A stretch of DNA of 64,000 bases, taken from an uncultured Candidatus Saccharibacteria bacterium (lineage in GTDB: Bacteria > Patescibacteriota > Minisyncoccia > Phycocordibacterales > UBA2100). Of the stretch, positions 3,946-27,194 are shown in pieces. The position numbers and the translations under genes are program-made. The stretch spans positions 65,800-129,799 of the forward strand of contig CAZZHR010000002.1 in the NCBI GenBank assembly GCA_964654205.1, written 5' to 3'. Position 1 is the stretch's first letter; each line of letters opens with the position of its first letter. The notes below the pieces were generated by a model. That model had not been told where the DNA came from. It ran no database searches and worked only from the letters and a program-made list of their open reading frames with translations.

Positions 3946-4668
3946 TTATACAGTCTCCGCGAGCACGGGGGGTGTGCATCCGCGCATGGCCCTCTCGTGG
4001 AGGCGAGCGAAGGCCTGGGCAGGATTGTCGCTCTTTGAGATTGCCGAGCCCACGCAGAGTCGATTTGCCCCGGCACGTACGAGGTCCTCGATGTTGGACT
4101 CCCCCACGCCACCGTCTACTGCCACCATGAGGTCGGGGTGTTTTGCATGCAGCTCTTCAACTCGTGAAAGCGCGGTGTCATTGAATGGCTGACCCTGGGG
4201 ACCAATCTTCGTTATAGACATCAGAAGCGCGTAATCAATAGCAGAAACAAATTCATCAATAGCAGCGAGTGGCGTATCAATCTTTAGCGCGAGACCAATC
4301 TCATTCGTTCCAGCACTGCGGCACAATGCGATTGTGCGCTGCACATCCTCTGCCGTGTCGAAGGATTCGACATGAAATACGATTCTCTTGAATCCAGCCT
4401 GAGCGAAGCACTCATAAACATCAAGATTCTGTTTTATCATCAAATGCAACTCCATCGAAACACTTCCTCCTAGCCTCAATTGCCGCAATTCCTCAAGCTG
4501 GGTCACATTGTTGAACGGCCATGTCTTTATATCTACGAACACGCCGTCGTCTATATCCACGTGCATCCAGTCGGTGTACGAACCGACGGATTGCACATAC
4601 GAAGCAACGTCGGACCACTCCCTCGGGACAACCGTCGGAAGTATGTGTGGGTCGCAAAGGTACCTCAT
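3946..4668 (-). CDS. rpe: Ribulose-phosphate 3-epimerase
   Basis: Start at MRYLCDPHILP. Motifs WMHVDIDDGVFV and AVDGGVG typical of Rpe TIM barrels. Confidence 0.8.
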   Translation of the reverse strand: MRYLCDPHILPTVVPREWSDVASYVQSVGSYTDWMHVDIDDGVFVDIKTWPFNNVTQLEELRQLRLGGSVSMELHLMIKQNLDVYECFAQAGFKRIVFHVESFDTAEDVQRTIALCRSAGTNEIGLALKIDTPLAAIDEFVSAIDYALLMSITKIGPQGQPFNDTALSRVEELHAKHPDLMVAVDGGVGESNIEDLVRAGANRLCVGSAISKSDNPAQAFARLHERAMRGCTPPVLAETV

Positions 4669-4670
4669 TT

Positions 4671-5126
4671 TTATTGTGGACCGACTCGGTAGCTGCCGGT
4701 TGGCTCCGTTGATGGAGAAGCACCTTCCGGTACATTGCACGTATCAGCGGGCGACGGTACGCTCGCTTCCATAACCGCACCAATGCAATACGAGACTACA
4801 GCAGAACCAATCGTGTACGGGGTGTAGTTGTAGTTGCTGCCCGTCGACGGGTCGGTAGGTACCTCTGAAATGTAGCTTGGCGCGAGACCCGCAAGAGCGC
4901 CTGGGTACGCGGGCAGTGACTGAGAAGAATAGTAGAGCTCGAGCGCGACTTGGAGCTGCTTGAGGTCCGAGATGCGACGCGTATCGCGCCCCTTCTCTCT
5001 CGCACTATTGAGTGATGCGAGCACAACAGAAGATAGGAGTCCGATGATAGCCACCACGACGAGAAGCTCTATGAGCGTGAACCCTCGCTGGGTGCTACGT
5101 CGCGATATGCGCAAATCTGTTGACAT
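4671..5126 (-). CDS. Type IV pilin / pseudopilin with class III signal (prepilin peptidase site G|FTLIELLVV)
   Basis: MSTDLRISRRSTQRG|FTLIELLVVVAIIGLL N-terminus. 151 aa. Embedded between rpe and rpiB. Confidence 0.7.
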   Translation of the reverse strand: MSTDLRISRRSTQRGFTLIELLVVVAIIGLLSSVVLASLNSAREKGRDTRRISDLKQLQVALELYYSSQSLPAYPGALAGLAPSYISEVPTDPSTGSNYNYTPYTIGSAVVSYCIGAVMEASVPSPADTCNVPEGASPSTEPTGSYRVGPQ

Positions 5127-7116: not shown

Positions 7117-7632
7117 CTATGACAGTACGTTCCGCGAACGTCGAAAAAGAACGTACGCACCGAAAAGGAGTAGGGGTGTGAGGATCACACCGCCCACCAA
7201 ATACGGCGCAGGAAAAACACGTTCACCTTCGACGACAGTGATGGAGAACTCGTTCGCGGCAAGCTCCTCGCCGTCTGCCGTTCTGTAACTCACACTCAGC
7301 GCAAACGTACCCTGCTCTGGGAACGTGTAAAGGAGCGTGGTCGGGCCGAAAGTTTGGAAACGGACTCCGGTCGCAAGAAGTGTTTTTCGCTCTCTCATTA
7401 CCCTCACCCACACATGGTCGAAATGCTCGAACGCGAGGTCTTCTTCTGCTCGCAGTTCAAACTCAAACCGTGACGCGCGCCCGGCTTCGAACGTAGGCTC
7501 ATCGTAGCCAATATCAATGAAAAAAGGTGACGATGTGGCTTCGAGGGAGTATCCGAGCGAATGCGCATTGACTATCGAGTAGGGAGCTACCGCGAGGAAA
7601 AGCAGGAGGATGCAGAACAGCACACGCCGCAT
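7117..7632 (-). CDS. Hypothetical secreted/membrane protein (signal peptide MRRVLFCILLLFLAVAPYSIVNA, C-terminal TM)
   Basis: Likely start at MRRVLF (7632). No known domain recognised. Confidence 0.45.
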   Translation of the reverse strand: MRRVLFCILLLFLAVAPYSIVNAHSLGYSLEATSSPFFIDIGYDEPTFEAGRASRFEFELRAEEDLAFEHFDHVWVRVMRERKTLLATGVRFQTFGPTTLLYTFPEQGTFALSVSYRTADGEELAANEFSITVVEGERVFPAPYLVGGVILTPLLLFGAYVLFRRSRNVLS

Positions 7633-7875: not shown

Positions 7876-9141
7876 TCAATTTTCAGGTGTGGTGGTCGCT
7901 TGCTGCACTTGTTCGCTCTCTGTAGCCACTGGCTCGGTAGTTGTCGCTGGGATTTCTATCTCCGTACTTCCTGCTTCGGTATTCGTGCTTCCCATTCCAC
8001 TCTCCGTACTCCCCCCTTCGTTCCCTCCGCTCTCATTCGACGCTTCTTCATTCATACCTCCTATTTCGTCTCCTTGTTCTTCTTGGACTTCTTCTTGGGC
8101 AGGCGTGCTCGTTGCCGAAATCGTGTCGCTCGACGCTTCTTCATTCGTACTTCCTCCTTCTCCTGCTGGACTTTCAACGTTCACATTTTCACTTTCAACC
8201 TGCGGCGGAGCCGCCGGCCTCACATTCCCCGCCTCGCTCACTTCGCCACCCGGATTCGCAGCATCACCCACGAGCACGATGCGGCGCACTGTTATCACTG
8301 CACCGCCTGGGTCTGTCGCGCTGTATTCAATCGAGTGCGCAGTCGTCGTCGAGGTATCGATGCCAGTCCATGTCGCTTTCTCGACGCCGTTGATGCGCAT
8401 ATACACGCCCGCGTTGGTCTGGTATGGATCGACGAGTACCGCGCCGAGGTCTGCGTAGCTCGCACCGAGCGGAATACGCGCCGGATTGTTGCCGAGGAGC
8501 TGCAGACCTATCTTGAGCCCGCTCGCGCTCGTACTTCCTGCTTCGTTACTCGTACTTCCGTTTCCGCTTCCATCTGCGGGACCAAAGACCGCGGCCGCTG
8601 CGGCCACCTGCGGCTGGACGACAGGGGTGTAGCCGGGGAGCGTCTCGGTGCTGTCATCGAGGAATTTGCCGATAAGGCCGCCGTACGACGTCGCTACGGT
8701 GAGCTGCGTCACTGCGCTCCGCGCGTTCTCTTGTGTCTTGCTCAGCCGCGAAGCCTCGCGTTCTATCACTTGCCTGAGCTGCTGCGTCACGTACAGGCCG
8801 AGGTCGCGATACTCGCCGAGGTCTGTCTTCGAGACCTGCATCGTTACTTTTTTGATTACGTCCTTCCAGACGTACTCGTCGACATCTATCGTGTGGAATT
8901 CGTACTCTACGAAATAGTCGTTCTCGTCTTCGGTGACCGCGGTGATGACAGCACGCGGGCTGTAGCTCGAGAGGTCCTTGCCGACGAGGTAGGTGTTGTC
9001 CACGGTGAGCACTTCATGCTGCTGCGAGTAGATGGCCTCCGGATTCGTCGCCGCAAAGACCCCCGTGCCGCCTAGAATCAGGATGCCGAGTGCCACCGGC
9101 ACGGCATTGTGATACTGAAAGAAGTGAAGAAGTGGGGTCAT
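7876..9141 (-). CDS. Membrane-anchored surface protein with an Ig-like (DUF5011-like) domain and an acidic S/T/E-rich disordered C-terminus
   Basis: N-terminal TM VPVALGILILGGTGVFAA. Segment IPLGASYADLGAVLVDPY...AVITVRRIV resembles bacterial Ig-like folds. The last ~100 aa are low-complexity and E/S/T/G-rich. Confidence 0.55.
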   Translation of the reverse strand: MTPLLHFFQYHNAVPVALGILILGGTGVFAATNPEAIYSQQHEVLTVDNTYLVGKDLSSYSPRAVITAVTEDENDYFVEYEFHTIDVDEYVWKDVIKKVTMQVSKTDLGEYRDLGLYVTQQLRQVIEREASRLSKTQENARSAVTQLTVATSYGGLIGKFLDDSTETLPGYTPVVQPQVAAAAAVFGPADGSGNGSTSNEAGSTSASGLKIGLQLLGNNPARIPLGASYADLGAVLVDPYQTNAGVYMRINGVEKATWTGIDTSTTTAHSIEYSATDPGGAVITVRRIVLVGDAANPGGEVSEAGNVRPAAPPQVESENVNVESPAGEGGSTNEEASSDTISATSTPAQEEVQEEQGDEIGGMNEEASNESGGNEGGSTESGMGSTNTEAGSTEIEIPATTTEPVATESEQVQQATTTPEN

Positions 9142-9151
9142 AGGTGAGAGG

Positions 9152-9598
9152 TTAGAGTTGATAGTTTTTAGTTGATAAGGGTGTACGCAACTTCCCGATA
9201 ATCGCCGTAAGCATTCGCTGTACTTCGTCGAGCAATTCGATGGATTTGGAGAAATCTATACTGGGAAAGAGCCGTTGCGCCGCGAGAAGCTGTGTTTCCA
9301 GCTCCGCGGCTGAACCAGCCGAGACGCATAAGAATTGCGCGTAATCCTTCCTTGTCCCCCTCTTTGTACCCTCGGCTATGTTTGAGGGGATTGATATTGC
9401 GGCGCGCCGCATCTGGCTCATCAGACCAAACTGCTCCGACTGTGGGAGTTTCGCGGTATCGCGGTACATCGTTTCGACAAGACTCATAGCCCTCTGCCAC
9501 ACGACCAAATCCTTGAAAGACCGCACAGGGGTAGGTGCGAGGTTAGAGTTTTTAGTTTTTAGGTTTGAGCTGTGTGTCGTTTTCATATTTCTTTTCAC
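9152..9598 (-). CDS. Four-helix-bundle protein (23S rRNA intervening-sequence protein family, TIGR02436-like)
   Basis: FKDLVVWQRAMSLV...FGLMSQMRRAAISIPSNIAEG matches the conserved core of this family. Confidence 0.65.
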   Translation of the reverse strand: MKRNMKTTHSSNLKTKNSNLAPTPVRSFKDLVVWQRAMSLVETMYRDTAKLPQSEQFGLMSQMRRAAISIPSNIAEGTKRGTRKDYAQFLCVSAGSAAELETQLLAAQRLFPSIDFSKSIELLDEVQRMLTAIIGKLRTPLSTKNYQL

Positions 9599-9611: not shown

Positions 9612-10112
9612 CTATAAACTCATCACTACCTTCCCAATAATGTCGACTTGTTGAACTGCTCCGAAGACGCGCCCATCGCTGCTCTTGCTGCGATTGTCAC
9701 CGAGCACAAGGTAATCTTCTGGCCCGAGTTGCATACGAAATGCTCCATTGTTCGTCCCGCCTATCATGCTTCCCGTCTCGTACCTCGTACTCTTTCCTTC
9801 GCTATCAGTGACCGTCACTCCATCTTCGCCAAGCTCTACAAGCTCACCGGGCAAGCCAATCACCCGTTTCACTTCAATCACCTCTTTCTGGTGCGGATTG
9901 CGATGCACGAGTATGTCGCCACGGCTAATGTGGAATCGGTGAGTCACCTTTTCGACGATAACAACGTCGTTCGCAGAAAACGTCGGCTCCATCGAGCCGC
10001 CAGAGACCACGTACGGACGGAAAATGAAAACCGAAGACAGCAGCGCGAGCGCAATGACAGTCGCAATCGTCTCTTTGTGCGTTCGTATCGTTGTGTGCAA
10101 TTGGTACGTCAT
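9612..10112 (-). CDS. lepB: Signal peptidase I
   Basis: N-terminal TM, catalytic-Ser box GGSMEPT and the VLGDNRSKSSDGR box. Start lies 3 nt after the stop of the giant upstream gene. Confidence 0.8.
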   Translation of the reverse strand: MTYQLHTTIRTHKETIATVIALALLSSVFIFRPYVVSGGSMEPTFSANDVVIVEKVTHRFHISRGDILVHRNPHQKEVIEVKRVIGLPGELVELGEDGVTVTDSEGKSTRYETGSMIGGTNNGAFRMQLGPEDYLVLGDNRSKSSDGRVFGAVQQVDIIGKVVMSL

Positions 10113-10114
10113 AT

Positions 10115-13100
10115 CTAAATTTCCATCCCGAGCATGAGCGCGAGGGCTTGGACGAAGCTGTTTGATGTGGCGGCAGGGGCGGCAGAATATTTGAACGGCT
10201 GCTCCGCGAACGCGGCGTAGACCATTGTGTCGCCGCTCGTGTTGAGGAAGGTGGTTCTTAACTTGAAACCATTGGCTAGAGAATCAATGACGTCTGCGGG
10301 TGCCGACTCTTGAGACGAACCATCGGCGCCCAAAACGCCACTTATTGGATTGTAGGTGTTCCTTGTTGTATCCAACATCCACCAACTACCCGTCGTTCCA
10401 ACCGCGGGCTTAAGCATGACAAACCGCGGCTTGAAGCCGGTGTAGACGAACGGACCGTCGGTCGAGCCATTGCCGGTGTAGGAGCCAAATGCCGACATGC
10501 CGGTCGTGGAGGCAAAGAGGTACGCCGCGTACTCGCTCCCGCCACCTACGCCGCCCGGTGTGCTCGAGGAATCGGTGAGTGCGCCGTTCTCCGTAAATGC
10601 TCCGCCTCGCCCCCTGTTGATGTGCCAATTGTCGCTCGTTCCAGAGAAGTACACATCGGGGACGAGTGTGGAACCGACCCCGATGACGGGCACGGGTTCG
10701 CCATTCGCGTCGATGAAGAAGCGCCTATTGGCTTCGACCGAGAGGTCCAGGCTCGTCCCGAACTTTATCCAAAGGTCTTTGATGTCTCCCGTGAGCTTGA
10801 AGCCCGCGTCCGGTTCCGCCCCCACCGCGAAGTTGCCTCTCGTCCAGTCGATCGTGTCGTTGGTAAGCGTGGAGCCGCCCGAATTGAAGTCGCTCACATC
10901 GTTGCGGTAGACCCAGGCGGAGCCGGTGTTTAGGTCGACCGAGAAGAGGTAGTGCACCCAGCCACTCGAGGCGAGCGTCTGCGTCGAGGAGTTCAGGATC
11001 ATGTCGAAGTTGTTGGACGCGTCGAGCCCCACGACCTGGATCACCTGCGTACCCGCCGTGCGTACGATGTAGAAGCCCGTGCCGAGGTCTCCCGTCGCTG
11101 CGATCGTCTGGTTGGTGCTATCTGCGCCCGTAATGTTGACCCAAAAAGAGACAGTTAACCGTTTGCCGTCCACGACGTCTGTGAGGTTTGCACCGCGCGT
11201 GAGGTAATCGTTGGTACCGTCGAAATGCGCGGCGCCGCCTTTGTTCACATCGGCATTCGTCCCCACGGTGAAGGCGCTTGCGGTAGGCGCGGTGTCGTTC
11301 CAGTAGGTCGCGTCGTCGGCAGTCGCAGCTGTGCTGTTGAGCAATAGATAGTCAGTCGCCGGTGCAGATGTATTGGACGAGTGATAGACCGCCCAATCGC
11401 CGGAGCCCGAAGCTTGTGTGTACGAGCGGAGCATCGCGCTCCCCTGATCGGCGATCGCCACGCTTGTGGCAGAGAGCGCCGCAACCGCGGGGTTCGGAGT
11501 CGTGCCGTCGACGATACCGCTCCCGTCGGCCACCTCTCTCCAATCGGTACCGTCGAAGGCGTACACACGGAGCTCGTTGGTCGTTGAGTCCACGAATGCC
11601 ACTCTGTTGCGGCCCAGCGCCGCCATGCCCGTCGAGCCTCCACTCGATTCGATTGTGAGAGAATTGCCCACCTGAGACCAATTCGTGCCGTCGAAATCAT
11701 ACGCGCGCAGCTGCTTTGTCCCCGAGTAGTCGTAGAGGGCTACGCGCGAAGCCGAGAGCGCCGCGAGGGAAGGGAGTGTGATGCCGCTGATGTTGAGCTC
11801 GTTCCCAGTCAGAGTCCAGTTGGTGCCGTCGAAATCATACGCGCGCAAGTCGTCGTTGGTGCCGTCGATAAAGGCTATGCGGTCGGACAGGAGCCCCGCA
11901 AGCGCGGGAGATCCCACGCCCGAGATGTTGAGCTCGTTGCCGGTCAGCGACCATGTAGAGCCGTTGAAATCGTATGCGCGCAAGTCGTCATTCCCGCTGT
12001 CAATAAATGCGACACGGCTCGAAAGCATAGTTGCGAGCGAGGGCGACCCTATACCCGAGATGCTGAGTCCGCTTCCTGTGAGAGACCAATTCGACGAGCT
12101 CAGGTCGTATGCGCGCAAAGACGCATTCCCGAAATCAACATATGCCACCCTCGTCGCGGAGAGCGCGGCAAGCGCGGGAGTATTGATACCGCTTATCGTG
12201 AGGCTGTTGCTCGTCTGTGCCCAGTCTCCGCGCACCTCTTTCACGAGCATGAAGTCCGGCGCTTTACCGAGCGAATGGCTCACCGTCCTGCTCTTACCCG
12301 TCCCCTTGTACGAGACGATGTCGAACCCGGCCTCCGCCGTCTCTTTCCAGAGCCATGAGATGTAGTTCTTGCCGCTCGTGTTGACGTTGGCCGAGCTCGC
12401 GCCGGAGCCGAGGCTGAAGCCGTTGTCGTCGTACGACGTGAGCGATTCCGTGTCGTCGACATCTTCACCGGCGGTCAGATTGGAGCTGAGCCACGCCTGC
12501 ACCCCGCGCAGAGCATCGAAGAGCGCATGGTTGGTCGAAGCGTCGGTACGGTTCTTTATCCACACGAGGTCGGGGCTAAAGCCGGTAACCGTTGTGCTTG
12601 TACCCGTCTGGTAGACAGACTTTGCCGCACCCGTGCCTGCGTACGCGATCGCATCAAAATAATTCTTCGGCACCACCACATCCGGCTCGGGCAAGTTGGC
12701 GGTCGAGAGTGCTTTGAAGCCAGAGGGCGGTTCGTATCTGAAATATCCCCCCGCCGCCGAGTAGTGCGTCGTCGTAGTTGTCCCTGGCTGACCAAAGTTT
12801 ATTGAAGCGCTTGCACCCGTGTAGACGGCGAGTGATGGAAATACAGGGTCAGCTCCGCTGAGTGTGGCGGCAGCTCCTGTGCCTCCTACTGGGTCACCAC
12901 TGTTCTGCCATGTCCCGTTTTTTGAGAAGTAAATCTTCTTGTTATCCAAATCAAGCGCTACACCGACGACATCGTTCGTTGTAAACGTATTGCCGTACGC
13001 GGCATTGGTCCCTCCGTTGTACGTCGTACCATCATGCCCGTAGTAGCTGATGCCCCCATTAGCAGACGAGCCGCCGGGAAATGCGCCGAGTGTCATCGGA

Positions 13101-14242
13101 GTGAACGCTGTGGAAGTTGCAACCCCGACGAGATAAAAATTACTGCCACTACTCTGTGCACCAGCTGTCACTTCCCAATACCATTTACCACTCGTGACAC
13201 CAATAATTGAGAGTGCCGTAAGAAAATTCCCAGCACTATGAGTCATACTCAAGTTGCCTTGAGAAAGAGTCAGCGAAGAGTTTTTGTAAATCGAGTTAAG
13301 TGTCGCAAACGCGTTCGTCGGGGTGTCGATGACTTGGTCGGTTGCGTCGAGGTTGTTGGCGGTCCAGTTGTTGCCGTTGCCGGATGTGTCGGTGCCAAGC
13401 GCCGCACTGTTGCCAAAGGCGAGCTTGAAGCCATTTGTCCCATACGTGCCCGTGTACGACTTCGGCCGCCAGTATCCATTGGCGTCGTACTCGCCGAAAG
13501 AGGTGGGCGTGAGCGCCTGCCCGTCGACAAAATGTAGGTCGGAGAGGTAGACATCAATCGAGCAACATGCACCCCCTTGTTGCTGACCGATACGATTGTT
13601 CGCATTGGCGAGCGCGAATTGGTACTCAGCGTTTTGTGCGGGATAATTCGCAGCGTCAAACGCCGTAATCTGCATCCCATCGATGTACATCTTCACTCTA
13701 TTCGCTGCAGTCGCATCTGTCGTGTCCCACACAACTACGACATGCATCCATTTTGATGGATCGCGAAAAAGTGCCGAGCTGCGAAGTTCGGCGGAAGTAG
13801 CCCCGCCGAAGGCGAAACTCAGGTTGTCCGCTGCAGCGCCGCCCGCCCCGAATTCAAGCCACGAAGAATTGCTCGACGAACCATCGTAGCCGGCAACTAT
13901 CGTTTGTCTCGTCCCCAAATTCCCCCTTTTTATCCACGTAGATATCGTTCCCTTCTTACGGTCAGCGGGTGCACCGGAGAATGTCTTGCTTAGGTTTGCA
14001 CTGTCATCGTCGTTGAAGCGAGCGCTGTTCGCGATCGTGTACGCCGCCTCCGCCTGCGGGAGTGTGAGAAGCGCAAACTGCGCGCCAAACCACGCCAGCG
14101 CGACAATCGCCGCCACAACCACCCGCCACCTCCACAGCCCGTTCAAAGCGTTCAAGGAGGCGTGCAAGGGGCGCCCTTGCACATGTGCAAGGGCGCCCCT
14201 TGCGCCGGAGATTTTGAGAAACTTGGTGAAGAGATTACTCAT
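10115..14242 (-). CDS. Giant secreted/surface protein (1375 aa): LamG/ConA-like, SPRY, seven ~40-aa tandem repeats, a second LamG-like domain
   Basis: SPRY signature GKWYWEV...VGVA...DVVGVALDLDNKKIYFSKNG. Seven repeats of I(S/T)G(I/V)G(S/T)P(S/A)LA..LS.R(V/I)AF(I/V)D.GN..LRAYDF(N/D)G(S/T)NW(S/T)LTGN.L. N-terminal TM. A likely alternative start is the GTG at 14122, preceded by GGAGG. Confidence 0.8.
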   Translation of the reverse strand: MSNLFTKFLKISGARGALAHVQGRPLHASLNALNGLWRWRVVVAAIVALAWFGAQFALLTLPQAEAAYTIANSARFNDDDSANLSKTFSGAPADRKKGTISTWIKRGNLGTRQTIVAGYDGSSSNSSWLEFGAGGAAADNLSFAFGGATSAELRSSALFRDPSKWMHVVVVWDTTDATAANRVKMYIDGMQITAFDAANYPAQNAEYQFALANANNRIGQQQGGACCSIDVYLSDLHFVDGQALTPTSFGEYDANGYWRPKSYTGTYGTNGFKLAFGNSAALGTDTSGNGNNWTANNLDATDQVIDTPTNAFATLNSIYKNSSLTLSQGNLSMTHSAGNFLTALSIIGVTSGKWYWEVTAGAQSSGSNFYLVGVATSTAFTPMTLGAFPGGSSANGGISYYGHDGTTYNGGTNAAYGNTFTTNDVVGVALDLDNKKIYFSKNGTWQNSGDPVGGTGAAATLSGADPVFPSLAVYTGASASINFGQPGTTTTTHYSAAGGYFRYEPPSGFKALSTANLPEPDVVVPKNYFDAIAYAGTGAAKSVYQTGTSTTVTGFSPDLVWIKNRTDASTNHALFDALRGVQAWLSSNLTAGEDVDDTESLTSYDDNGFSLGSGASSANVNTSGKNYISWLWKETAEAGFDIVSYKGTGKSRTVSHSLGKAPDFMLVKEVRGDWAQTSNSLTISGINTPALAALSATRVAYVDFGNASLRAYDLSSSNWSLTGSGLSISGIGSPSLATMLSSRVAFIDSGNDDLRAYDFNGSTWSLTGNELNISGVGSPALAGLLSDRIAFIDGTNDDLRAYDFDGTNWTLTGNELNISGITLPSLAALSASRVALYDYSGTKQLRAYDFDGTNWSQVGNSLTIESSGGSTGMAALGRNRVAFVDSTTNELRVYAFDGTDWREVADGSGIVDGTTPNPAVAALSATSVAIADQGSAMLRSYTQASGSGDWAVYHSSNTSAPATDYLLLNSTAATADDATYWNDTAPTASAFTVGTNADVNKGGAAHFDGTNDYLTRGANLTDVVDGKRLTVSFWVNITGADSTNQTIAATGDLGTGFYIVRTAGTQVIQVVGLDASNNFDMILNSSTQTLASSGWVHYLFSVDLNTGSAWVYRNDVSDFNSGGSTLTNDTIDWTRGNFAVGAEPDAGFKLTGDIKDLWIKFGTSLDLSVEANRRFFIDANGEPVPVIGVGSTLVPDVYFSGTSDNWHINRGRGGAFTENGALTDSSSTPGGVGGGSEYAAYLFASTTGMSAFGSYTGNGSTDGPFVYTGFKPRFVMLKPAVGTTGSWWMLDTTRNTYNPISGVLGADGSSQESAPADVIDSLANGFKLRTTFLNTSGDTMVYAAFAEQPFKYSAAPAATSNSFVQALALMLGMEI
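14162..14205. repeat. Two abutting copies of a 21-nt GC-rich near-palindromic REP-like element (GTGCAAGGGGCGCCCTTGCAC / GTGCAAGGGCGCCCCTTGCgC)
   Basis: Read directly from the sequence. A third copy lies at 14733-14753, inside the adjacent RAYT gene. Confidence 0.75.
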
Positions 14243-14901
14243 ACTTCGTCGAGCATTAATTCTCGGACTGTCGATTTCCGTGCGACGATGTCGTCGAAAG
14301 CGTCTTCAACGAAACGCTGGTACTCGCGCGCACTCTTGAAGTGCTCAAGGATTGTTGCCGTATCACACAATCCCCCGGTATCTGGCGAGAGGTACTCGGC
14401 ATAGCTACTATGCGGCCACTTTCGAGCGTCTCGCACAAGCTTCGCCACTTGGGGATTCACATGAATATAGGCCGAGAGGTGTTTGAGTTGCGTATCGTCT
14501 ACCACATGCACGGCCTTGATGCGATCCTGAAATACATGTCCCACATGATCGTACTTGCGATTGAAGTACATCGAGTAGCTCGTCAGTAGTTTCAGAAAAA
14601 GTTTACTAATCGATACATCTTTGTTCTGTCGTATGAGAAAATGGAAATGATTAGGCATAAGACAGTACACAGCAATCGAGAATGCATCTCTTTCGAATGG
14701 CTCGATGCGAATCTGGACGCGCTTCCCGCCGGTGTGCAAGGGCGCCCCTTGCACATCGCGACCGAGAGAGCGCATAAGTCGGTCTAGGAAAACTCGTGCA
14801 TCCTCATCATCTCGAAGGATGTCCATCTTGCCATTGCCGCGGCTGAAGAGGTGGTACCACTCTCCTGTCGAGAACTCTTTGTAGTCGCGTGAATTTGTCA
14901 T
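14239..14901 (-). CDS. REP-associated tyrosine transposase (RAYT; IS200/IS605-like Y1 HUH transposase, COG1943)
   Basis: GEWYHLFSRGNGK, HUH motif YCLMPNHFHFLI, KLLTSYSMYFNRKY, and catalytic-Tyr region WPHSSYAEY. Contains an in-frame REP copy. Confidence 0.75.
   Translation of the reverse strand: MTNSRDYKEFSTGEWYHLFSRGNGKMDILRDDEDARVFLDRLMRSLGRDVQGAPLHTGGKRVQIRIEPFERDAFSIAVYCLMPNHFHFLIRQNKDVSISKLFLKLLTSYSMYFNRKYDHVGHVFQDRIKAVHVVDDTQLKHLSAYIHVNPQVAKLVRDARKWPHSSYAEYLSPDTGGLCDTATILEHFKSAREYQRFVEDAFDDIVARKSTVRELMLDEV
14733..14753. repeat. REP-like 21-nt palindrome GTGCAAGGGCGCCCCTTGCAC inside the RAYT coding sequence
   Basis: Identical to the units at 14162-14205. Encodes DVQGAPLHT in the RAYT frame. 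Confidence 0.75.
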
Positions 14902-14911
14902 ACTCGATTAG

Positions 14912-17900
14912 TCATCTAAAGCCCGTGGCAGCCGCGCCGAATACGACGAGCGAGCTGGTCGCATTGGTCGCGACAAATGAGACGAGGTCACATTGGTTGG
15001 CCGTCGTGGTGAGTGTCGGTGCGCTTCCACCCTGCCAGCGCACGACCGCTGGCCAGGTCAGTGTGCGGCTTCCCGTGCCGTCTTGGCACACCACGAGACG
15101 GAGGATTTGCCCCGCGATGAAATTGGAGAATGTAATCGTGCGGTTGCCGCCGAGTGTCACCTTCTGCTGGTTGCCTTCAAGCCAGTTGATAGCCACGGTC
15201 GCGCCGTCGGAGAGACTCCTTTCCACCGTGGTGATAGCGCCACCCGCACCCACCGCAAATTTCGCAAACGGCGTCGATGTACCCACACCCACGTTGCCGT
15301 TGGCGTTGATGACAAAGAGGGACTGCGCTGTGGTGGAAGCGACCTGTATGAAGTTGGTCGAGCTATCCTGCGTCTCTATCGTGAGCTTGGCCGCAGGGGT
15401 CGTGGTGCCGATTCCTGCCGCTGTCTCTACATAGAGCTTGCCCGCTCCAGTCGGCGACGTGGGGCAGCCGGATGCGCAGACAAGGAGGTTGTCGTCGGAG
15501 AGCAGAATGTTTTTGTTGGACGTGTGTATCGTAAGGTCGCCAGTCGAGTCCACTTGGAGCGAGGCGACCGTGGAATCATTGTACGAAATCGCTACCTGAG
15601 GATTCGCCGCTGCAGCCGTCACCGAGAACTTGCGGTACGGCGATGTGGTGCCGACACCGAAGAATCCGGCACTCGTGGCGCGCATCACCTCGGTGAGCGC
15701 GCCACTTTGCAGTGTCGAGAACACGAGGTCGCCCTTCCCGAGCCCGCCGAAGTTCTGTTGCAAGATGCTCGTGATTGCAGAAGTCGTCGTACCCGTGCCG
15801 GTGACATCGAGCGCGCGGAATGAGAGCCGCGATGCGGTCGATGTCGCGCTCGCCGCATTGGTGAGGTAGAGCTGGTCGGCGGTCGCGCCGGAAGATGTGT
15901 TGTAGACATCGAGCTTCGTGCCCGGCGTCGTCGTACCGATGCCGACATTGCCCGTGCTGGTGATGCGCATTCGCTCTTGGCTCGACTCATATCCACCAGT
16001 CCTAAACTGAATACTGTCGGAGCCGCCTGATGCAACATTCCCGTTGGTAAAGAGCACCAGACTAGTATTCGAACCGAAACTCGTGTTTCCGCCGAGACCG
16101 TATCCGACACCAGACCCGTACGCACGGAAGTAGCCTGTCGCAGTATCGCTATGTACAGTGTATGTGCTCTGACCATTGCTATTTGCATTCGTCACCGTGA
16201 CCCCGTCGACGCTCGCTACATTGCTGTACACAGTGAGTTTTGTAGACGGAGTCGTCGTCCCTACCCCCACGTTGCCGGTGTTTGTCACCGCAAAGAGCGA
16301 GCTCGTCGCGCTCGCGGTCGAGCTCGCTATCTCGAAGAGCATCGTATTGGTCTCGCCCGACAGTGCGTGCACTGAGAGCTTAGCCCACGGCGACGACGTG
16401 CCGATACCGAAGCGCGCATTGACCGTATCCCACGTGAGCGTACTCGACGCCGCCATCACGCCGCCGTAGTTGAATTGTATGTTGCCGTTGCCGCCTGCCG
16501 GAGCCGAGCCGCCGGATGCGAGGAGGGAGCCGGAGAAGTATGTGTAGACTGCCGAACCATCGACAGCTGTACCCGTTGAAAGCACCGCTGCTTCGAGATA
16601 GTCGGATGTTCCATTCATGTCGACAATGGTGGTTACTTGCGCCGCATCTGCACCACCCGATCGATAGGGACCGTTTGCTATCGCGACACCGTTCTTACGG
16701 ACAGCTGCCTGACAGTTGTTTGTGGTATTTGTACATCCAACAGACGCGACAACGATATACTTGCCGGCTACCGTAGGTGTGAAGCGGTTGGTCGTTAGGT
16801 CAAAATTGTTGTTGGTATCGTAAGTTTCAGTCGTCCAATCGACCACAAGTACCGTATCGCTCACAGTGGTTGTCGCCGACCCATTGCGATGCACATGGAA
16901 CGCTACCGTAGAAGAAGCGGTTCCAACCGTGCGGTTCGTGTAGACCTTGACCGCGAATCCGCCTGCGCCGCCTGCGCCGCCTGCGCCTCCAGTGCCCGCA
17001 TTTCCAGCGCTACCCCCGGAGCCAACGGTGAAATAGAAAGTCCCCGTCGGACTGCCTACAAGCTCGTACGCGTATCCTCCGCCTCCACCTCCGCCTCCAC
17101 TCCATACGTTGTTGAGATCATTGATTCCGCCGCCAGCCCCTCCTCCTCCGAACGCGTTGCCTGCGCCGCCTGCTGCCGTAGTACCCGCTCCGCCACCCCC
17201 ACCGCGGGCACCATTGCCCCCCGCTCCTCCCACTGCGTACAGATCTTGCGTCTCCCCACCATCCGCATCAATACCAAGCGTGAGTCCGCCTGCACCACCA
17301 ACGAGATTTACTTCGCCACCGGAGCCAGAACCGCCAGATGCCGCAGGCCCATTGGAGCCAGACCCACCGCCTCCGCCCGTCGCACTTAAGTGCGGAGAGG
17401 AGCATGCGACAGAATTGCTTCCGAAGCATGTCGTACCTCCTACGCCACCATTGCCGCCGTTGCCTCCACCGCCACCCCCTCCACCGCCGCCCCAAACCTC
17501 CACTTCTATATATGACGTATCGCTCGGGAGCGTGAGCGTGCCACCGGAGAAGCTCGGTGCGCTGCCGGGGTCTCCGGTGAAGACCACCGACGAGGTTCCC
17601 ACAGTGGAAGTCGCGTATGTTCCTATGAGCGTGTTGCCACCACCTCCGCCTCCACTCGAGCCGCTCCCCGTCCCCGCACACTGTCCGCTCGGGAGCAGGA
17701 AGCAGCCGCTCGTGAGTTGGACGCCACCCGCAAAGGTGGATGTTGCCGAGCCGGTGATATTGAGGAGTGTTGATTGAATGCCGCCAGAGAATGTTGTGGT
17801 GGAAGGCGACCCAAACGTCGCTGCGCCGGTGGATGCCGAGAACGAGAGCGCGGCTACCGTAGAAGTCGACGAGTGCGTCGAGGTGGCGAGGTAGAAGGTG

Positions 17901-20900
17901 CTGCCGATGTTGCGGAGTGTCCAGAGATTGCTGCCGAGCCCGTCCGAGAGCGCGAGCTGCGGACCTGTCGAGCTCGCGACCGTAAGAATATGGTACGGTG
18001 TCGTCGTACCGATGCCGAACGTACCGTTGAAATAGCCGAGACCGTTGTCGAGAATGCGGAAGCGCGTCGTCGAGGCGGAGTCGAAGAATTCCGTGAGTAT
18101 GCCCGTGCCCGTCCCAGATCCCTGCACTGAGAGCTTAGCCCACGGTGACGTGGTGCCGATTCCGACGTTGCCCGTCGAACCCTGAATGAGCATTCTCGTC
18201 GCGTAACTCCCGGCCGTTGCGTTGGCCTTGAAATGGAGGTCGCCATTGTTGCCCGTCTGCCCTATCTCCGCCCAGCCCGTGCCAGTACCCGCGCCGCCGG
18301 TCGTGAATATCATGCTGCCGACGTTGCCTGTACCGGCTCTGTTGAGGAAGAGTCGGAAGTCGCCCGACGTGTCAAAGGCCGCACTCGTACCGAAGACGTC
18401 GAGCTTACTCCCCGGCGTCGTCGTACCGATTCCCACGCTGCCGGTGCTCTTTACCGCCAAAAGGTCACCGCCGGATCCGCTCGATGAGTTGAGCTGCAAG
18501 AGGTCCGCGCTGGAACCGGTATGAAGACTTCCAACGATGACGGGCTTCGCGATGTCGTGCTCGTTGTAGATGTTGAAGATACCTGTAAAGGTCGGGGAGG
18601 TTTTGCCAAAACCGATCTCCCCCGTGGGACTGACGATGAAGGCGTTGACGCCGTCGGTCCTGTTCTGGAAGAAGAGCGCCCCAGCAGGAGTATTGCCGCT
18701 ATCCCCCGCGAGGAAGCCCCATTTCTTACCGCCGGAGTCCGTATTCTGGAGATTGAACCACGGATCGCTGCCGCTCACATGGAACTTCGCGTCGCTTGAA
18801 GCTGCGCCCACGCCGAGCAGACCCTGCACGAGTAGGTTACCTGTCGTCGTCGCGCCGCCTGAGATCGTGAGGCCGCCCGCCTGTGTGCCGTCGCCGATGG
18901 TGGAACTTGCTGTGACACCGAGGCCGCCAGTTACAGCGAGTGTGGTCCACGGACTTACGTTGCCGATACCGACACTTCCACCACCGCTTTGAAGGACGAG
19001 ATTATTCCATGCACCGGCACCGCTGCTCTGTGCGCTGAGTCCAAAATAAGTATTGCCCGTGCTCGCGCCCGACGCTACAAAGAGCACCGAACCGGCTGAA
19101 CCAGAGACCCAATCGCTCGTCGTTATCGCAAGTTGTGAAGGCGCATTACCGCCAGTAATTTGCAACTTACCGTTGGTCGGACTCGCCGTGCCGATACCGA
19201 AGTTGCCGCTGATGCGGTCGACGAAGACGAGCGGCGAGGAGGTACCGACGGTAAAGAGCGAGGTCGATGGCGGCGTCGATGTGCCGACGGCGAGACCGCC
19301 GGAGGCGATTGTGCTCGTCGCCGTCGTCGAAGTGGCGACGAAATATGAAGCGTCGACGAATGACGTAAAGCGAGCATTGCCACTAACGTGAAGCTTATAG
19401 GTGGGAGAGGTATTACCTATACCTACAGAGCCAGCTGTATTGAGGAACAATAAGTCTGTCGCCGCGGCGCCCGTGCTGATGGAAAATCCAGAGCTATCGT
19501 TACCACTGATTCCGACTTTCCATTCTGGAGTCGTACCGCTTCTGACAAAGCTGACATTCGGTGCCACATTTCCGTTTATCAAAATTCCTTGATACGTCGT
19601 TCCTGCAGTCACATGGAGTGGCTGCTGCGGATTTGTTGTTCCAATTCCAACCCGACCGCTTGGGTTCCAAATGCCGGAGCCCGGGAAGAATGCGGTGCCA
19701 GAGACAGAGAGCGCGGTTGAGGACGCATACGGGAACGTGGACGCTGCTGTGGTAGAAGTCGCAGTGAAGATTGGCGCGGTGATGGTGTTGTATGCGGTGA
19801 GTGCGCCGCGCAGGAGTGAGCTGCCCGCGACTGAGAGGTTTCCGCTTGAGTCGATGGTCGTCGTCGCGCTGCCGCCGAAGTACGCAGTGCCAAAGTTGGA
19901 GAAGTTAGTACTCGACGCATTCCCCGAGAATATCTGGAGCGCCGTCCAGTTGTTGGAGACACTTGTGTCCACGGAGCCCCCACCGCCCGTGATACAAGCA
20001 CCGTCTACGGCAAAGCATCCGTCGGCGAGGTTTATTCCATTGGCAAATGTGGTAGTAGCCGAGCCGGTAAAGGTAATATCGCTCAGCGTAGTCCCAGAAA
20101 GGGTACCGCCCGTAATCGTCGAGTCGGAGATATCGACGCTGCTGAGCTGATCGATTTTGTTTGTGTGCGCGACCGTCTGATACACATTGGTAATACTTGC
20201 CGACTGCGCTGTAGAGACACCGGCGACGAGGCTTGTGAGTCGCTGTTCCACGGCTGCGATCCGCGTATCGAGGTCGGCATCCGTGATGCCGCCGACAGAT
20301 GCAACTATGCGCTCGGTCTCGACGATACGTTCAACGACTCGTTCGTTTGTCACCACAGTCGATGTGCTCACAACAACAGGCGTTTGCTGCGATTGCGCTA
20401 CGATAACCTGTGCGCGTTCATACGGATCCATCGTGTCGATGAATCCCGCATCGAGCGGTGTAAGTGCGAGCGAGTTCGTCGCGTCACTCGGGAACACGAT
20501 GTTGTAGACGAACGTGTCGACGCTCGTGTTGACTGCCTTCGCGATGGTGCGCAGCGCATCAGGGAAGAAAGAAAGTGTCGCGCTCGATACTTGTGCGAGC
20601 GCGACCTCGGGATTCTCAACCGCATAGTACGTCGCATCACTCGCCGCGCGCACCGCGCGCGTCGCCACTTCATCAACTCGTACGAGCGACTGCGCGACGC
20701 TCGCCGCCATCTCGCGCGTAGTCTCCGCTGCAAACCGCGCATAGGCTGGGTCGACAAACGCATACGTGCCAAATGTCATGGTGAACGCAACGAGCATCGC
20801 GACAAACTTCTGCAGAAACTCCGTCGCGGGAGAAATCGTGTACACCGGCACGTGCACATGTGCGTGACTCAAAGTACGAGCAACCGCCTCGTGCACGCCC

Positions 20901-21349
20901 GACGGCGCCGCTGCGATAGACGGCATCGCGTGAGCGACCTTCGCGCTCTGCGCCACCGCCGCAGCCTTCAATTTTTCCTGCACATGCTTCGCGTGCGCCG
21001 CCAACGTCTTCGTCACAGGTATTTGTCCGCTCACAGAAAGGGCGCTCTCGACACTCTTTACACTTTCAGATTTCAACTTTATATCTTGTGGCTTATTCTC
21101 CACCCCGTGATATTCACGCACCCGTTCATCCGACAGCTGCTCCCTGCGGATGGTTTTCGCATGCTCTTGCTCCACGAGGTATTTTTGGAGCGAGCCCTCA
21201 TCGACGTACCAGTTCTTGCCGATTCTTCTACCGCGAAGCCTTCCATCACGGCAAAGACGAGCGATGTAGTCGCGAGAGAGCCCTGCACTGGATGAAGCAT
21301 CCCCGGCCGAGAGGTGCTTCTGCCCGTCGAAATATATTTCGTTGCTCAT
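14912..21349 (-). CDS. Giant membrane protein (~2145 aa): cytoplasmic excisionase-type HTH (HTH_17-like), one TM, then a huge extracellular fibre-like region with >25 GN(V/I)GIGTT(S/T)P..KL.V repeats and a poly-Gly stretch
   Basis: Start set at the ATG at 21349 (MSNEIYFDG). The listed ORF begins at an upstream GTG. N-terminus LSRDYIARLCRDGRLRGRRIGKNWYVDEGSL aligns with the HTH repeats of the neighbouring gene. TM is FLQKFVAMLVAFTMTFGTYAFV. Repeats resemble tail-fibre proteins. Confidence 0.8.
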   Translation of the reverse strand: MSNEIYFDGQKHLSAGDASSSAGLSRDYIARLCRDGRLRGRRIGKNWYVDEGSLQKYLVEQEHAKTIRREQLSDERVREYHGVENKPQDIKLKSESVKSVESALSVSGQIPVTKTLAAHAKHVQEKLKAAAVAQSAKVAHAMPSIAAAPSGVHEAVARTLSHAHVHVPVYTISPATEFLQKFVAMLVAFTMTFGTYAFVDPAYARFAAETTREMAASVAQSLVRVDEVATRAVRAASDATYYAVENPEVALAQVSSATLSFFPDALRTIAKAVNTSVDTFVYNIVFPSDATNSLALTPLDAGFIDTMDPYERAQVIVAQSQQTPVVVSTSTVVTNERVVERIVETERIVASVGGITDADLDTRIAAVEQRLTSLVAGVSTAQSASITNVYQTVAHTNKIDQLSSVDISDSTITGGTLSGTTLSDITFTGSATTTFANGINLADGCFAVDGACITGGGGSVDTSVSNNWTALQIFSGNASSTNFSNFGTAYFGGSATTTIDSSGNLSVAGSSLLRGALTAYNTITAPIFTATSTTAASTFPYASSTALSVSGTAFFPGSGIWNPSGRVGIGTTNPQQPLHVTAGTTYQGILINGNVAPNVSFVRSGTTPEWKVGISGNDSSGFSISTGAAATDLLFLNTAGSVGIGNTSPTYKLHVSGNARFTSFVDASYFVATSTTATSTIASGGLAVGTSTPPSTSLFTVGTSSPLVFVDRISGNFGIGTASPTNGKLQITGGNAPSQLAITTSDWVSGSAGSVLFVASGASTGNTYFGLSAQSSGAGAWNNLVLQSGGGSVGIGNVSPWTTLAVTGGLGVTASSTIGDGTQAGGLTISGGATTTGNLLVQGLLGVGAASSDAKFHVSGSDPWFNLQNTDSGGKKWGFLAGDSGNTPAGALFFQNRTDGVNAFIVSPTGEIGFGKTSPTFTGIFNIYNEHDIAKPVIVGSLHTGSSADLLQLNSSSGSGGDLLAVKSTGSVGIGTTTPGSKLDVFGTSAAFDTSGDFRLFLNRAGTGNVGSMIFTTGGAGTGTGWAEIGQTGNNGDLHFKANATAGSYATRMLIQGSTGNVGIGTTSPWAKLSVQGSGTGTGILTEFFDSASTTRFRILDNGLGYFNGTFGIGTTTPYHILTVASSTGPQLALSDGLGSNLWTLRNIGSTFYLATSTHSSTSTVAALSFSASTGAATFGSPSTTTFSGGIQSTLLNITGSATSTFAGGVQLTSGCFLLPSGQCAGTGSGSSGGGGGGNTLIGTYATSTVGTSSVVFTGDPGSAPSFSGGTLTLPSDTSYIEVEVWGGGGGGGGGGNGGNGGVGGTTCFGSNSVACSSPHLSATGGGGGSGSNGPAASGGSGSGGEVNLVGGAGGLTLGIDADGGETQDLYAVGGAGGNGARGGGGGAGTTAAGGAGNAFGGGGAGGGINDLNNVWSGGGGGGGGYAYELVGSPTGTFYFTVGSGGSAGNAGTGGAGGAGGAGGFAVKVYTNRTVGTASSTVAFHVHRNGSATTTVSDTVLVVDWTTETYDTNNNFDLTTNRFTPTVAGKYIVVASVGCTNTTNNCQAAVRKNGVAIANGPYRSGGADAAQVTTIVDMNGTSDYLEAAVLSTGTAVDGSAVYTYFSGSLLASGGSAPAGGNGNIQFNYGGVMAASSTLTWDTVNARFGIGTSSPWAKLSVHALSGETNTMLFEIASSTASATSSLFAVTNTGNVGVGTTTPSTKLTVYSNVASVDGVTVTNANSNGQSTYTVHSDTATGYFRAYGSGVGYGLGGNTSFGSNTSLVLFTNGNVASGGSDSIQFRTGGYESSQERMRITSTGNVGIGTTTPGTKLDVYNTSSGATADQLYLTNAASATSTASRLSFRALDVTGTGTTTSAITSILQQNFGGLGKGDLVFSTLQSGALTEVMRATSAGFFGVGTTSPYRKFSVTAAAANPQVAISYNDSTVASLQVDSTGDLTIHTSNKNILLSDDNLLVCASGCPTSPTGAGKLYVETAAGIGTTTPAAKLTIETQDSSTNFIQVASTTAQSLFVINANGNVGVGTSTPFAKFAVGAGGAITTVERSLSDGATVAINWLEGNQQKVTLGGNRTITFSNFIAGQILRLVVCQDGTGSRTLTWPAVVRWQGGSAPTLTTTANQCDLVSFVATNATSSLVVFGAAATGFR

Positions 21350-21640
21350 GAGCGATGATGCCTGTGGCCGGACGCACGATTTATCTAATATTCTACTACT
21401 CTTTTCGCCAATTGGACGTGTATCGGACACTATTACGTGTGGACAAGCCTAAGCAGAATTTGTACCGGACATTTTTTACATTTTTTCCCACAAGTTCGTA
21501 TCAACGCACAAAAAATTCTCCGTTTTTTTGAAAAAAAGCCTCTTCACTACAACCTCTCACCTCTTACCTACCCCCCTCCTCCCGGCCGACTCGGGCATCC
21601 GAGGAGCGACGTAGAGCGGTATTCCGCGCGTGTGTGGCGC

Positions 21641-22682: not shown

Positions 22683-22756
22683 GATGCAAGTATACAATGA
22701 GCCGCATCTCGGCTTCCCGACTTTCCGAGATTATGTGGACAGCGCAGTTCCTTCGC

Positions 22757-27151: not shown

Positions 27152-27159
27152 GGATACCC

Positions 27160-27168
27160 ATCCTACCA
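27160..27168 (-). promoter_or_regulatory. Extended -10 TGgTAGGAT 8 nt upstream of the secA ATG (minus strand)
   Basis: Minus-strand sequence GTGGTAGGATgggtatccATG. Lies immediately downstream of the terminator hairpin. Confidence 0.35.
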
Positions 27169-27194
27169 CTGTGCGACTTTTCAATCCATGAAAA

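Follow-up and report, generated by a model that had tools for sequence, protein, structure and literature searches.

We analyzed a 64-kb stretch (the window) of contig CAZZHR010000002.1, from an uncultured Candidatus Saccharibacteria bacterium, in which a minus-strand gene encodes a protein of 1375 amino acids (aa), hereafter the giant, directly upstream of lepB, the gene for a signal peptidase I (SPase I). The features of this gene pair are given below, numbered from the first letter of the window; pLDDT is the predicted local distance difference test score of AlphaFold2 (AF2) models, and R1 to R3 are the three repeats of the domain DUF7483.

10115..14242, minus strand: gene of the giant, 1375 aa, in the order signal, LamG, SPRY, split DUF7483 and C-terminal tail
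14045..14242, minus strand: putative N-terminal export signal, aa 1-66, with a WRWR n-region, the h-region VVVAAIVALAWFGAQFALLTL and the c-region PQAEA
13343..14041, minus strand: LamG/concanavalin-A-like domain 1, aa 68-300 (phrog_27411 spans aa 80-518)
12671..13342, minus strand: SPRY domain, aa 301-524 (Pfam match at aa 353-485)
12239..12670, minus strand: DUF7483, R1 and the first strands of R2, aa 525-668 (1.1e-38; pLDDT ~88-97)
11411..12238, minus strand: nested insert 1, predicted six-bladed beta-propeller, aa 669-944, six repeats of ~45 aa
11201..11410, minus strand: DUF7483, remainder of R2, aa 945-1014 (pLDDT ~93-96)
10541..11200, minus strand: nested insert 2, second LamG, aa 1015-1234, at the same site in the homologues P0046 and P0025
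10193..10540, minus strand: DUF7483, R3, aa 1235-1350 (8.3e-41; phrog_24898 “tail fiber protein,” 4.5e-53)
10118..10192, minus strand: C-terminal tail PFKYSAAPAATSNSFVQALALMLGMEI, aa 1351-1375 (low pLDDT, short helix)
9612..10112, minus strand: lepB, signal peptidase I, 166 aa

The open reading frame (ORF) of the giant is intact, and an identical protein is already present at NCBI as an unnamed entry (P0001); the families of its parts are likewise already catalogued. A first-pass annotation of this DNA had described the 1375-aa ORF and its neighbors, with two concanavalin-A/LamG-like domains and a SPRY domain, and all of these assignments were borne out. The full-length Pfam scan places SPRY (PF00622) at aa 353-485 (59.5 bits against a cutoff of 26.3, 4.5e-16), and the strings GKWYWEV and DVVGVALDLDNKKIYFSKNG are present in the domain. 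This region is modeled at a pLDDT of ~85-96 (AF2 model of aa 300-1375), and Foldseek aligns it with the solved SPRY structures of Ash2L, DDX1 and RanBP9/10 (E ~1e-12, template-modeling (TM) score to the target 0.7-0.86), while phmmer matches it to the PDB at 5e-7. The label “eukaryote-like” that had been given to the domain is not supported, since it merely reflects which structures have been solved. Laminin_G_3 (PF13385) is matched twice above its cutoff of 27.6 bits, at aa 91-235 (48.3 bits, 1.6e-12) and at ~aa 1012-1163 (34 bits, 4e-8), both copies being detected in segment scans only and not listed by the full-length scan.

The rest of the body belongs to DUF7483 (PF24299; 278 bits against a cutoff of 27), whose profile is covered from position 2 to position 330 in three pieces. 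In segment scans, profile positions 2-159 fall at aa 525-672, positions 161-213 at ~aa 950-1005 and positions 213-330 at aa 1234-1349. Because the alignment to a 781-aa protein of cyanophage SS120-1 is collinear at residues 68-668, 945-1014 and 1235-1355 of the giant, the two inserts are bounded at aa 669-944 and aa 1015-1234 (276 aa and 220 aa); the propeller interrupts R2, and the second LamG lies at the R2/R3 boundary. Profile-profile comparison of the three thirds of a 94-unit alignment with hhalign gave 98.8% for R1-R2, 99.4% for R1-R3 and 98.2% for R2-R3, and the repeats have in common the motif Y.G.G...GF.P..V..K.R....W. Judged by these profiles, DUF7483 is an internal triplication, made of three homologous ~105-aa modules predicted to be beta-structured. 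The two related ~110-aa modules reported earlier are indeed homologous but correspond to R1 and R3 of this single domain. DUF7483 is uninterrupted in 94 of 104 homologous units, with a length of 292-350 aa, and the giant is therefore among the most heavily decorated. This domain-in-domain design had been missed by the first-pass annotation, as had the phage homology of the whole body and the hypervariability of the locus.

The first insert contains six repeats with a period of 45-47 aa, anchored by LR[AVS]Y at aa 709, 754, 799, 845, 891 and 938, instead of the seven repeats of ~40 aa counted before; their resemblance to a beta-propeller was upheld by structure prediction, which gave an ordered fold. 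A first AF2 run on aa 300-1375, in which this region was without alignment depth, gave a pLDDT of 35-60 there. With an alignment of 40 homologues, aa 672-962 were modeled at a pLDDT of 92.6 and a predicted TM score (pTM) of 0.89, with 24 strands forming six four-stranded blades. Foldseek searches of the PDB with this model returned six-bladed propellers only (TM score 0.6-0.75), namely Pizza6 designs, the NHL domains of TRIM71, Brat and Thin, the PknD sensor, and the fucose lectins RSL and AAL. No DNA-level tandem repeats were found in the propeller region by a nucleotide repeat search, because the repeats have diverged at the nucleotide level, and no Pfam family reaches its cutoff on the propeller, with sub-threshold matches to Rax2 (1e-3) and Tectonin only.

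The propeller nevertheless defines a sizeable family without a name: when clusters at 50% identity are counted, the repeat region (aa 672-962, 11357-12229) recruits 1,557 of them at E<=1e-3 and 388 at E<=1e-30, in proteins that span 250-3,700 aa. A word-based search retrieved 73 homologues of the insert, mostly proteins of 290-480 aa with the propeller at the C terminus, and propellers are common among predicted viral structural proteins as well. Relatives at the tips of phage tail fibers are 43-52% identical to the insert. The N terminus of P0125 matches phrog_394 “tail protein” (1.5e-47), and P0124, P0126 and P0134 match tail-fiber PHROGs; P0126, which is 48% identical to the insert, is encoded directly after baseplate-wedge genes on a 42-kb contig of a temperate myophage (L088), with amidase and integrase genes downstream. 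On the strength of these matches, the closest relatives of the propeller are C-terminal domains of predicted phage tail fibers.

Phage kinship extends to the body of the protein. The giant matches PHROG 19943 “virion structural protein” (4.9e-161), 27411 (2e-76) and 24898 “tail fiber protein” (4.5e-53). Using tblastn, we found the LamG-SPRY-DUF7483 unit in 71 phage records at 34-39% identity, mostly from T7-like marine phages of Pelagibacter, Synechococcus/Prochlorococcus, Roseobacter and Methylophilales, where it is annotated as virion structural protein, tail fiber or SPRY protein; the alignments cover about half of the giant, that is, all but the signal and the two inserts. In SS120-1 and in Pelagibacter phage HTVC011P, the gene of the unit lies in the structural module, after internal virion proteins and tail fiber, and in HTVC011P the unit is split into gp36 (LamG and SPRY) and gp37 (DUF7483, annotated as tail fiber). 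Homology, annotation and gene position thus mark LamG-SPRY-DUF7483 as a building block of putative tail fibers or structural virion proteins in T7-like marine phages.

In a collection of 5.8 billion proteins, the giant matches more than 5,000, many of which have two tandem units. The best named matches come from Candidatus Kaiserbacteria, and the best non-self match is 46-48% identical. Among the 120 best matches, the protein ends separate a cellular branch, typical of the Candidate Phyla Radiation (CPR), from a phage branch. CPR-type proteins begin with basic residues, ~20 hydrophobic residues and [A/V]-x-[A/G] right before AYTIANSARF, the start of LamG, and finish with a 25-aa extension, “...PFKYSAA..FVQAVAFLMGMxF,” in which position 5 of FVQA[V] is variable. 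Phage-type proteins, including that of SS120-1, have instead ~20 residues without a hydrophobic stretch before AYTIANSARF, and end in “...PFKYSNAR.” When the termini of the 120 best matches to the giant were typed in this manner, 30 had both the signal and the long tail, 68 had neither, 8 were discordant (2 with the hydrophobic N terminus only, 6 with the tail only) and 11 were left unclassed. In a rough neighbor-joining tree of DUF7483 units, which is crude and whose members were chosen by similarity to the giant, 21 of the 27 CPR-type units fall in one clade of 22 leaves, which would fit a single main origin of the cellular branch. The CPR-type tail is too short for a transmembrane helix and matches no nameable sorting signal.

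The giant itself starts with WRWR, followed by 21 hydrophobic residues and then LPQAEA|AY; SPase I is predicted to cleave between A66 and A67, a site placed from hydrophobicity and motif. A motif of the form [AVSG]-x-[AGS] directly before AYTIANSARF is conserved in the CPR-type homologues. It is thus likely, from these features, that the giant is exported through the Sec pathway and cut after AEA66. Alternative TTG starts exist at aa 30 (14155) and aa 33 (14146), and the orthologue at the related locus L012 starts just before WRWR; all start variants share the h-region and the cleavage site.

The gene lies in a recurrent cassette, which runs from a giant with a helix-turn-helix (HTH) motif and a transmembrane segment to the LamG/SPRY/DUF7483 giant, an S26 peptidase, an Ig-like protein and gap, with a Y1 transposase gene (Y1_Tnp) and a four-helix-bundle gene in varying slots. 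We found this order on the complete 859-kb Kaiserbacteria chromosome CP066682.1 (L001/L006), on an 852-kb scaffold (L002, with L003 being the same locus on the 266-kb scaffold of a second assembly), and at L012, L041, L056, L072, L085 and L086. The cassette is therefore chromosomal and conserved across Kaiserbacteria-like genomes. Its members do not change at the same rate: between the window and L012, the closest available relative, identity is 74% for the 333-aa HTH protein (HTH333), 73% for lepB, 83% for the 421-aa protein p421 and 90% for the last 250 aa of the HTH giant, as opposed to 47% for the LamG/SPRY/DUF7483 giant (N-terminal 585-aa alignment; segments 39-58%). The L012 orthologue (P0046, 1366 aa) is built alike and shares the position of the LamG insert, but it carries an LVIVD-repeat propeller (1e-53) in R1 and not the propeller of the window in R2. 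The propeller insert of the window was found in no other protein among the 120 best matches. By these comparisons the giant is the fast-changing member of the cassette, and conserved flanks around a head-swapping center are the pattern expected for a recognizer of a variable partner.

The lepB gene begins 2 nt past the stop codon of the giant (TAG-AT-ATG, with the lepB ATG at 10112); the adjacency had been noted correctly, the distance (given as 3 nt) had not. Its product passes TIGR02227 (120 bits against a cutoff of 47) and matches Peptidase_S26 at 9e-33, and aligned with six S26 proteins of the cassettes it has an intact Ser box (GGSMEP), Lys box (KRVIGLPGE) and GDNR..S.D.R motif (GDNRSKSSDGR), in agreement with the proposal of a signal peptidase I beside the giant. 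It is an ordinary bacterial P-type SPase I, since the SipW model reaches only 20.8 bits against a cutoff of 190. The spacing would suit the translational coupling that had been suggested, but equally tight or overlapping junctions are present at the other gene borders of the operon.

The synteny of lepB with giants of related genomes was also followed, and an S26 gene occurs near the giant in about ten related loci. It stands directly after the giant, or one small gene further on, in the window, L001, L002/3, L012, L041, L056, L072, L085 and L086. At L087, two S26 genes with intact Ser and Lys boxes (4384-4743 and 11893-12327) are found within 8 kb, one directly after a 2511-aa LVIVD giant and the other one gene (437 aa) downstream of the LamG/SPRY/DUF7483 giant P0025; the first of the two is without the middle beta-hairpin region. 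Conversely, the giant stands next to gap without lepB at L033, L035 and L081, and has no lepB downstream at L007 and L066. Of 79 loci from species-representative genomes, only 5 have an S26 gene no more than 10 kb away from the homologue, and all five are from CPR bacteria. The link between lepB and the giant is thus real but limited to a clade, within a block of conserved housekeeping order. A peptidase “dedicated” to the giant is plausible but unproven: of the secretion and processing cassette proposed in the first-pass annotation, the recurrent adjacency stands and the dedication does not, given the 5 of 79 loci and the housekeeping genes in the block.

The genes and elements around the pair are as follows.

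7876..9141, minus strand: p421, 421 aa, with an N-terminal transmembrane segment or signal and a weak Ig-like domain; constant member of the cassette
9152..9598, minus strand: four-helix-bundle protein of the 23S rRNA intervening-sequence protein type (Avd-like), 148 aa (TIGR02436, 111 bits)
14164..14203: perfect 40-bp palindrome, a doublet resembling a REPIN (repetitive extragenic palindromic (REP) doublet), GCAAGGGGCGCCCTTGCACA/TGTGCAAGGGCGCCCCTTGC, encoding aa 14-27 “ARGALAHVQGRPLH” of the giant
14239..14901, minus strand: Y1 transposase of the RAYT (REP-associated tyrosine transposase)/IS200-like type, 220 aa, with HUH motif and Tyr intact; its stop overlaps the ATG of the giant by 4 nt
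14912..21430, minus strand: upstream giant, 2172 aa, with a weak HTH_17 match at aa 44-85, a transmembrane segment and a Gly/Thr-rich extracellular part

The genes from 21430 down to 7876 share one strand, with gaps of at most 13 nt or overlaps. The 2172-aa protein has tail-fiber PHROG matches and a weak C1q-like match at aa 1510-1637. Its last ~70 aa (14972..15172, aa 2087-2153) match a phage tail-fiber C-terminal domain, being 41% identical (E 7e-11) to the C terminus of CYYG_00030 of SS120-1, a gene in tail-fiber position that lies immediately upstream of the LamG-SPRY-DUF7483 gene of that phage. This C-terminal domain occurs in 61 phage records, and it is adjacent to a LamG-SPRY-DUF7483 gene in only two, SS120-1 and MEP301. 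Together, these matches hint weakly at a gene pair co-inherited between phages and CPR bacteria, and perhaps at a physical partnership; the evidence is weak because tail-fiber genes cluster anyway. A 357-aa protein matching GP38 (T-even adhesin, PF05268) is encoded in the related cassette L086 (16183-17256), which adds a further module of phage receptor binding to loci of this type. HTH333, a 333-aa paralogue of the N-terminal part of the 2172-aa protein, is encoded just upstream (21696-22697).

The palindrome starts 39 nt past the called ATG of the giant, and as RNA it would form a hairpin of -47 kcal/mol (z -7.3). A 17-mer of it occurs three times in the 64 kb, against 0.02 expected, the third copy lying inside the Y1_Tnp ORF (14730-14758, aa ~48-57). 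The identical element is present in L002/L003 at the same place of Y1_Tnp and as doublets at the 5′ ends of the giant and of lepB (in L002 at 7493-7507, 8065-8102 and 14445-14479), such that the giant of L002 is bracketed by palindrome doublets; the DNA of the element is identical there although the proteins of that genome are only ~41% identical. The peptide “RGALAHVQGRPLH” of several homologues is thus a REP/REPIN-like DNA element next to a RAYT-like gene and not a conserved protein motif, and it is unusable for choosing the start codon. The palindrome resembles palindromic elements that insert into ORFs. Scans of JGI metagenomes gave no match to the 40-mer, and four unrelated single hairpins for a 19-mer. 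A Y1_Tnp gene is also found near the giants of L001, L002, L007, L008, L056, L066, L081 and L087, in varying position and orientation and frequently overlapping start or stop codons of adjacent genes.

Downstream of lepB, the four-helix-bundle gene and the further secreted protein that had been announced there are both present, the former by its TIGR02436 score and the latter as the 421-aa protein with its N-terminal hydrophobic segment. The four-helix-bundle gene shifts between slots (L001 7508-7999, L085 5600-6004, L086 12193-12558, L041 ~4298-4714), sitting either before the giant or after lepB, and some cassettes lack it. As the four-helix bundle is Avd-like, a diversity-generating retroelement was considered; it was rejected, with no reverse transcriptase among 47 ORFs of the window scanned against Pfam and a DivGenRetAVD score of 18.5 bits against 80.

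The window is a piece of chromosome from a CPR (Kaiserbacteria-like) groundwater bacterium with a tiny genome, which agrees with the episymbiont lineage presumed earlier. One flank of the cassette holds PfkB, a split transketolase, rpe, a pilin-like gene, rpiB and gap. The other holds the 333-aa HTH_17 protein, gatB, secA, a Cas2-like gene, a Wzy_C/TPR protein and a glycan-synthesis cluster of ~28 kb. The secA gene (24626-27184, minus strand) lies ~3 kb away from the cassette here, and in L085 (13303-15837) the two adjoin; with secA and lepB, core genes of the Sec pathway therefore lie near what would be the largest exported proteins of the cell in this clade. The 216-aa PaaX_M/Cas2-like protein is encoded at 27787-28437 (minus strand), and no CRISPR array or other cas genes were noticed nearby. 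The glycan-synthesis cluster (28623-57238) encodes a 795-aa Wzy_C O-antigen-ligase-like protein with TPR, many GT4 and GT2 glycosyltransferases, epimerases/dehydratases, a DegT aminotransferase, a flippase, methyltransferases and a B12-radical SAM enzyme. Further on, a ComEA-like protein with HHH_3 and PKD domains (57928-59136, minus strand) adjoins a VirD4/TrwB-like coupling protein (59199-61079, minus strand); the two may be components of DNA uptake or of type IV secretion.

Based on these comparisons, we favor, with moderate confidence, the reading that the giant is a Sec-exported, lectin-like surface protein of a Kaiserbacteria-type CPR bacterium. Its body would be the LamG-SPRY-DUF7483 unit, with the propeller and the second LamG spliced into loops as extra binding modules. 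The precursor would pass through Sec and be cut after AEA66, for which the LepB encoded 2 nt downstream is the simplest candidate, and the mature protein of ~1300 aa would stay at the cell surface, held either by the C-terminal tail or by the neighboring membrane-anchored 2172-aa fiber-like protein; retention through the tail or neighboring proteins is a possibility that we rate somewhat short of even. At the surface, the giant would bind a ligand, either glycan or protein, that belongs to another cell or to a matrix, with the propeller as an exchangeable specificity head. Such recognition of a ligand or cell seems on balance probable, while a role in host contact during episymbiosis is a more tentative proposal. 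Several points weigh against this reading. It is equally possible that the 21-aa hydrophobic stretch stays uncleaved and anchors the N terminus, in which case the giant would be an N-terminally anchored surface protein, with the same functional reading and LepB irrelevant to it. AF2 models the second LamG and the C-terminal tail poorly, how the protein would be kept at the surface is a guess, and a lectin-like fold, here a predicted one, does not prove that the giant binds sugar.

The locus can also be taken as a self-contained cassette of the giant, lepB, the four-helix-bundle gene and the next secreted protein, in which LepB would be a private protease for the giant, as SipW is the maturation protease for TasA. 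The placement of lepB beside the giant or one small gene after it across loci speaks for this, as do the two intact S26 genes of L087, stop and start codons that are 2 nt apart or overlapping, and a substrate with a conserved A-x-A site. We nevertheless consider a private protease unlikely: the adjacency is confined to one CPR clade (5 of 79 genome loci), and L007, L066, L081, L033 and L035 carry the giant without such a lepB; gene order in the block, housekeeping genes included, is conserved as a whole; the enzyme is a standard P-type SPase I that passes TIGR02227 and fails the SipW model; lepB is the only one in the 64-kb window and may be the only one of the cell; and the four-helix-bundle gene changes slots and is missing in part of the cassettes. 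Another possibility is that the giant is secreted or associated with the S-layer and serves in nutrient capture, polysaccharide binding or envelope structure, with no cell recognition. The LamG “lectin/glucanase” folds and the propeller do resemble carbohydrate binders, and the same window holds a large glycan-synthesis cluster. However, no hydrolase family or catalytic motif was detected in the giant by Pfam, TIGRFAM and segment scans, and its kinship with phage receptor-binding proteins, together with head swapping, fits the recognition of variable partners better, making such glycan handling quite improbable.

It is more improbable still that the giant is a phage or prophage tail fiber, or a component of a phage-derived particle, despite its strong matches to “virion structural protein” and “tail fiber protein” PHROGs (4.9e-161 and 4.5e-53), the occurrence of its unit in 71 phage records, the tail-fiber-like segments of the neighboring giant and the adjoining Y1 transposase gene. 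The hydrophobic signal and the CPR tail are absent from phage-type proteins, in several genomes the gene keeps its chromosomal place between gatB/secA and gap, and no capsid, portal, terminase, tail-tube, integrase or lysis gene was found in the 64 kb. Chromosomal context, N-terminal signal and tail therefore all set the giant apart from a phage module, and a prophage identity of the locus was rejected because phage hallmark genes were not found in the window. Returning to the reading as a cellular surface protein, its phage ancestry can be taken one step further. Kaiserbacteria-type CPR bacteria might have taken over a receptor-binding pair of podophages, namely a fiber with a tail-fiber C-terminal domain and a LamG-SPRY-DUF7483 adhesin, as their own device for host recognition. 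The bacteria would have added a Sec signal and a surface-retention tail, a swap of the propeller heads that sit in loops of DUF7483 would re-tune the specificity, the co-located signal peptidase would mature the giant, and the RAYT/REPIN elements at the gene borders might help in exchanging the cassette. We regard this takeover as speculative and, taken as a whole, rather unlikely.

Apart from the type IV pili of Saccharibacteria, little is known of the ways in which ultra-small CPR bacteria locate their hosts and keep hold of them. The locus offers a concrete and widely conserved candidate for such host recognition, with binding heads that differ between close relatives. The analysis also provides a first anatomy of DUF7483, as a predicted triple repeat that tolerates nested domains and that has phage and cellular branches with distinct termini. 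New here, besides the triple repeat, are the nested-domain design, the split between cell-type and phage-type proteins, the conserved Kaiserbacteria cassette with lepB, and head swapping between close relatives. If the adhesin idea is true, the propeller and LamG inserts would be handles for predicting the host range of uncultivated CPR lineages, and would be useful for pull-downs.

Several known systems can be set beside the locus. Signal peptidases dedicated to an operon are known from tapA-sipW-tasA of Bacillus subtilis and from streptococcal pilus islands (SipA/LepA). The window resembles both in that a peptidase gene adjoins the gene of a large surface or fiber protein and that the pairing is recurrent, and it differs from the former in having a P-type SPase I instead of a SipW-type enzyme. 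In phage T4, the fiber gp37 and the adhesin gp38 form a two-component adhesion module. Here, too, a long fiber-like gene is followed by a separate gene for a putative globular binding protein, but the fiber-like protein is here membrane-anchored, with a cytoplasmic HTH_17-like domain. The propellers of NHL proteins, PknD, RSL/AAL and phage fibers share the predicted fold of the first insert at TM scores of 0.6-0.75; the copy in the giant is internal to another domain, not terminal. Pfam lists DUF7483 (PF24299) as a family of unknown function; its profile is fully covered by the giant, in a match split by the two inserts.

A literature search found nothing on DUF7483, on the architecture of the giant in CPR bacteria or on SPRY proteins of pelagiphages, and the source paper of CP066682.1 makes no mention of lectins, adhesins or Kaiserbacteria. 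LamG3 and SPRY lectin domains have been noted on the tail fibers of jumbo phages (Iyer et al. 2021, PMC7824862). The same module order as in the giant is found in cyanophage SS120-1 (YP_007676874), Pelagibacter phage HTVC011P (gp36 and gp37), Roseobacter phage CRP-811 and Methylophilales phage MEP301, whose proteins are collinear with the giant at 35-39% identity over the whole phage protein. These phage proteins have ~780 aa, no hydrophobic N terminus and no inserts, and end in “...PFKYSNAR,” in contrast to the giant, which is chromosomally encoded and carries a Sec-type signal, the 25-aa tail, and the nested propeller and LamG.

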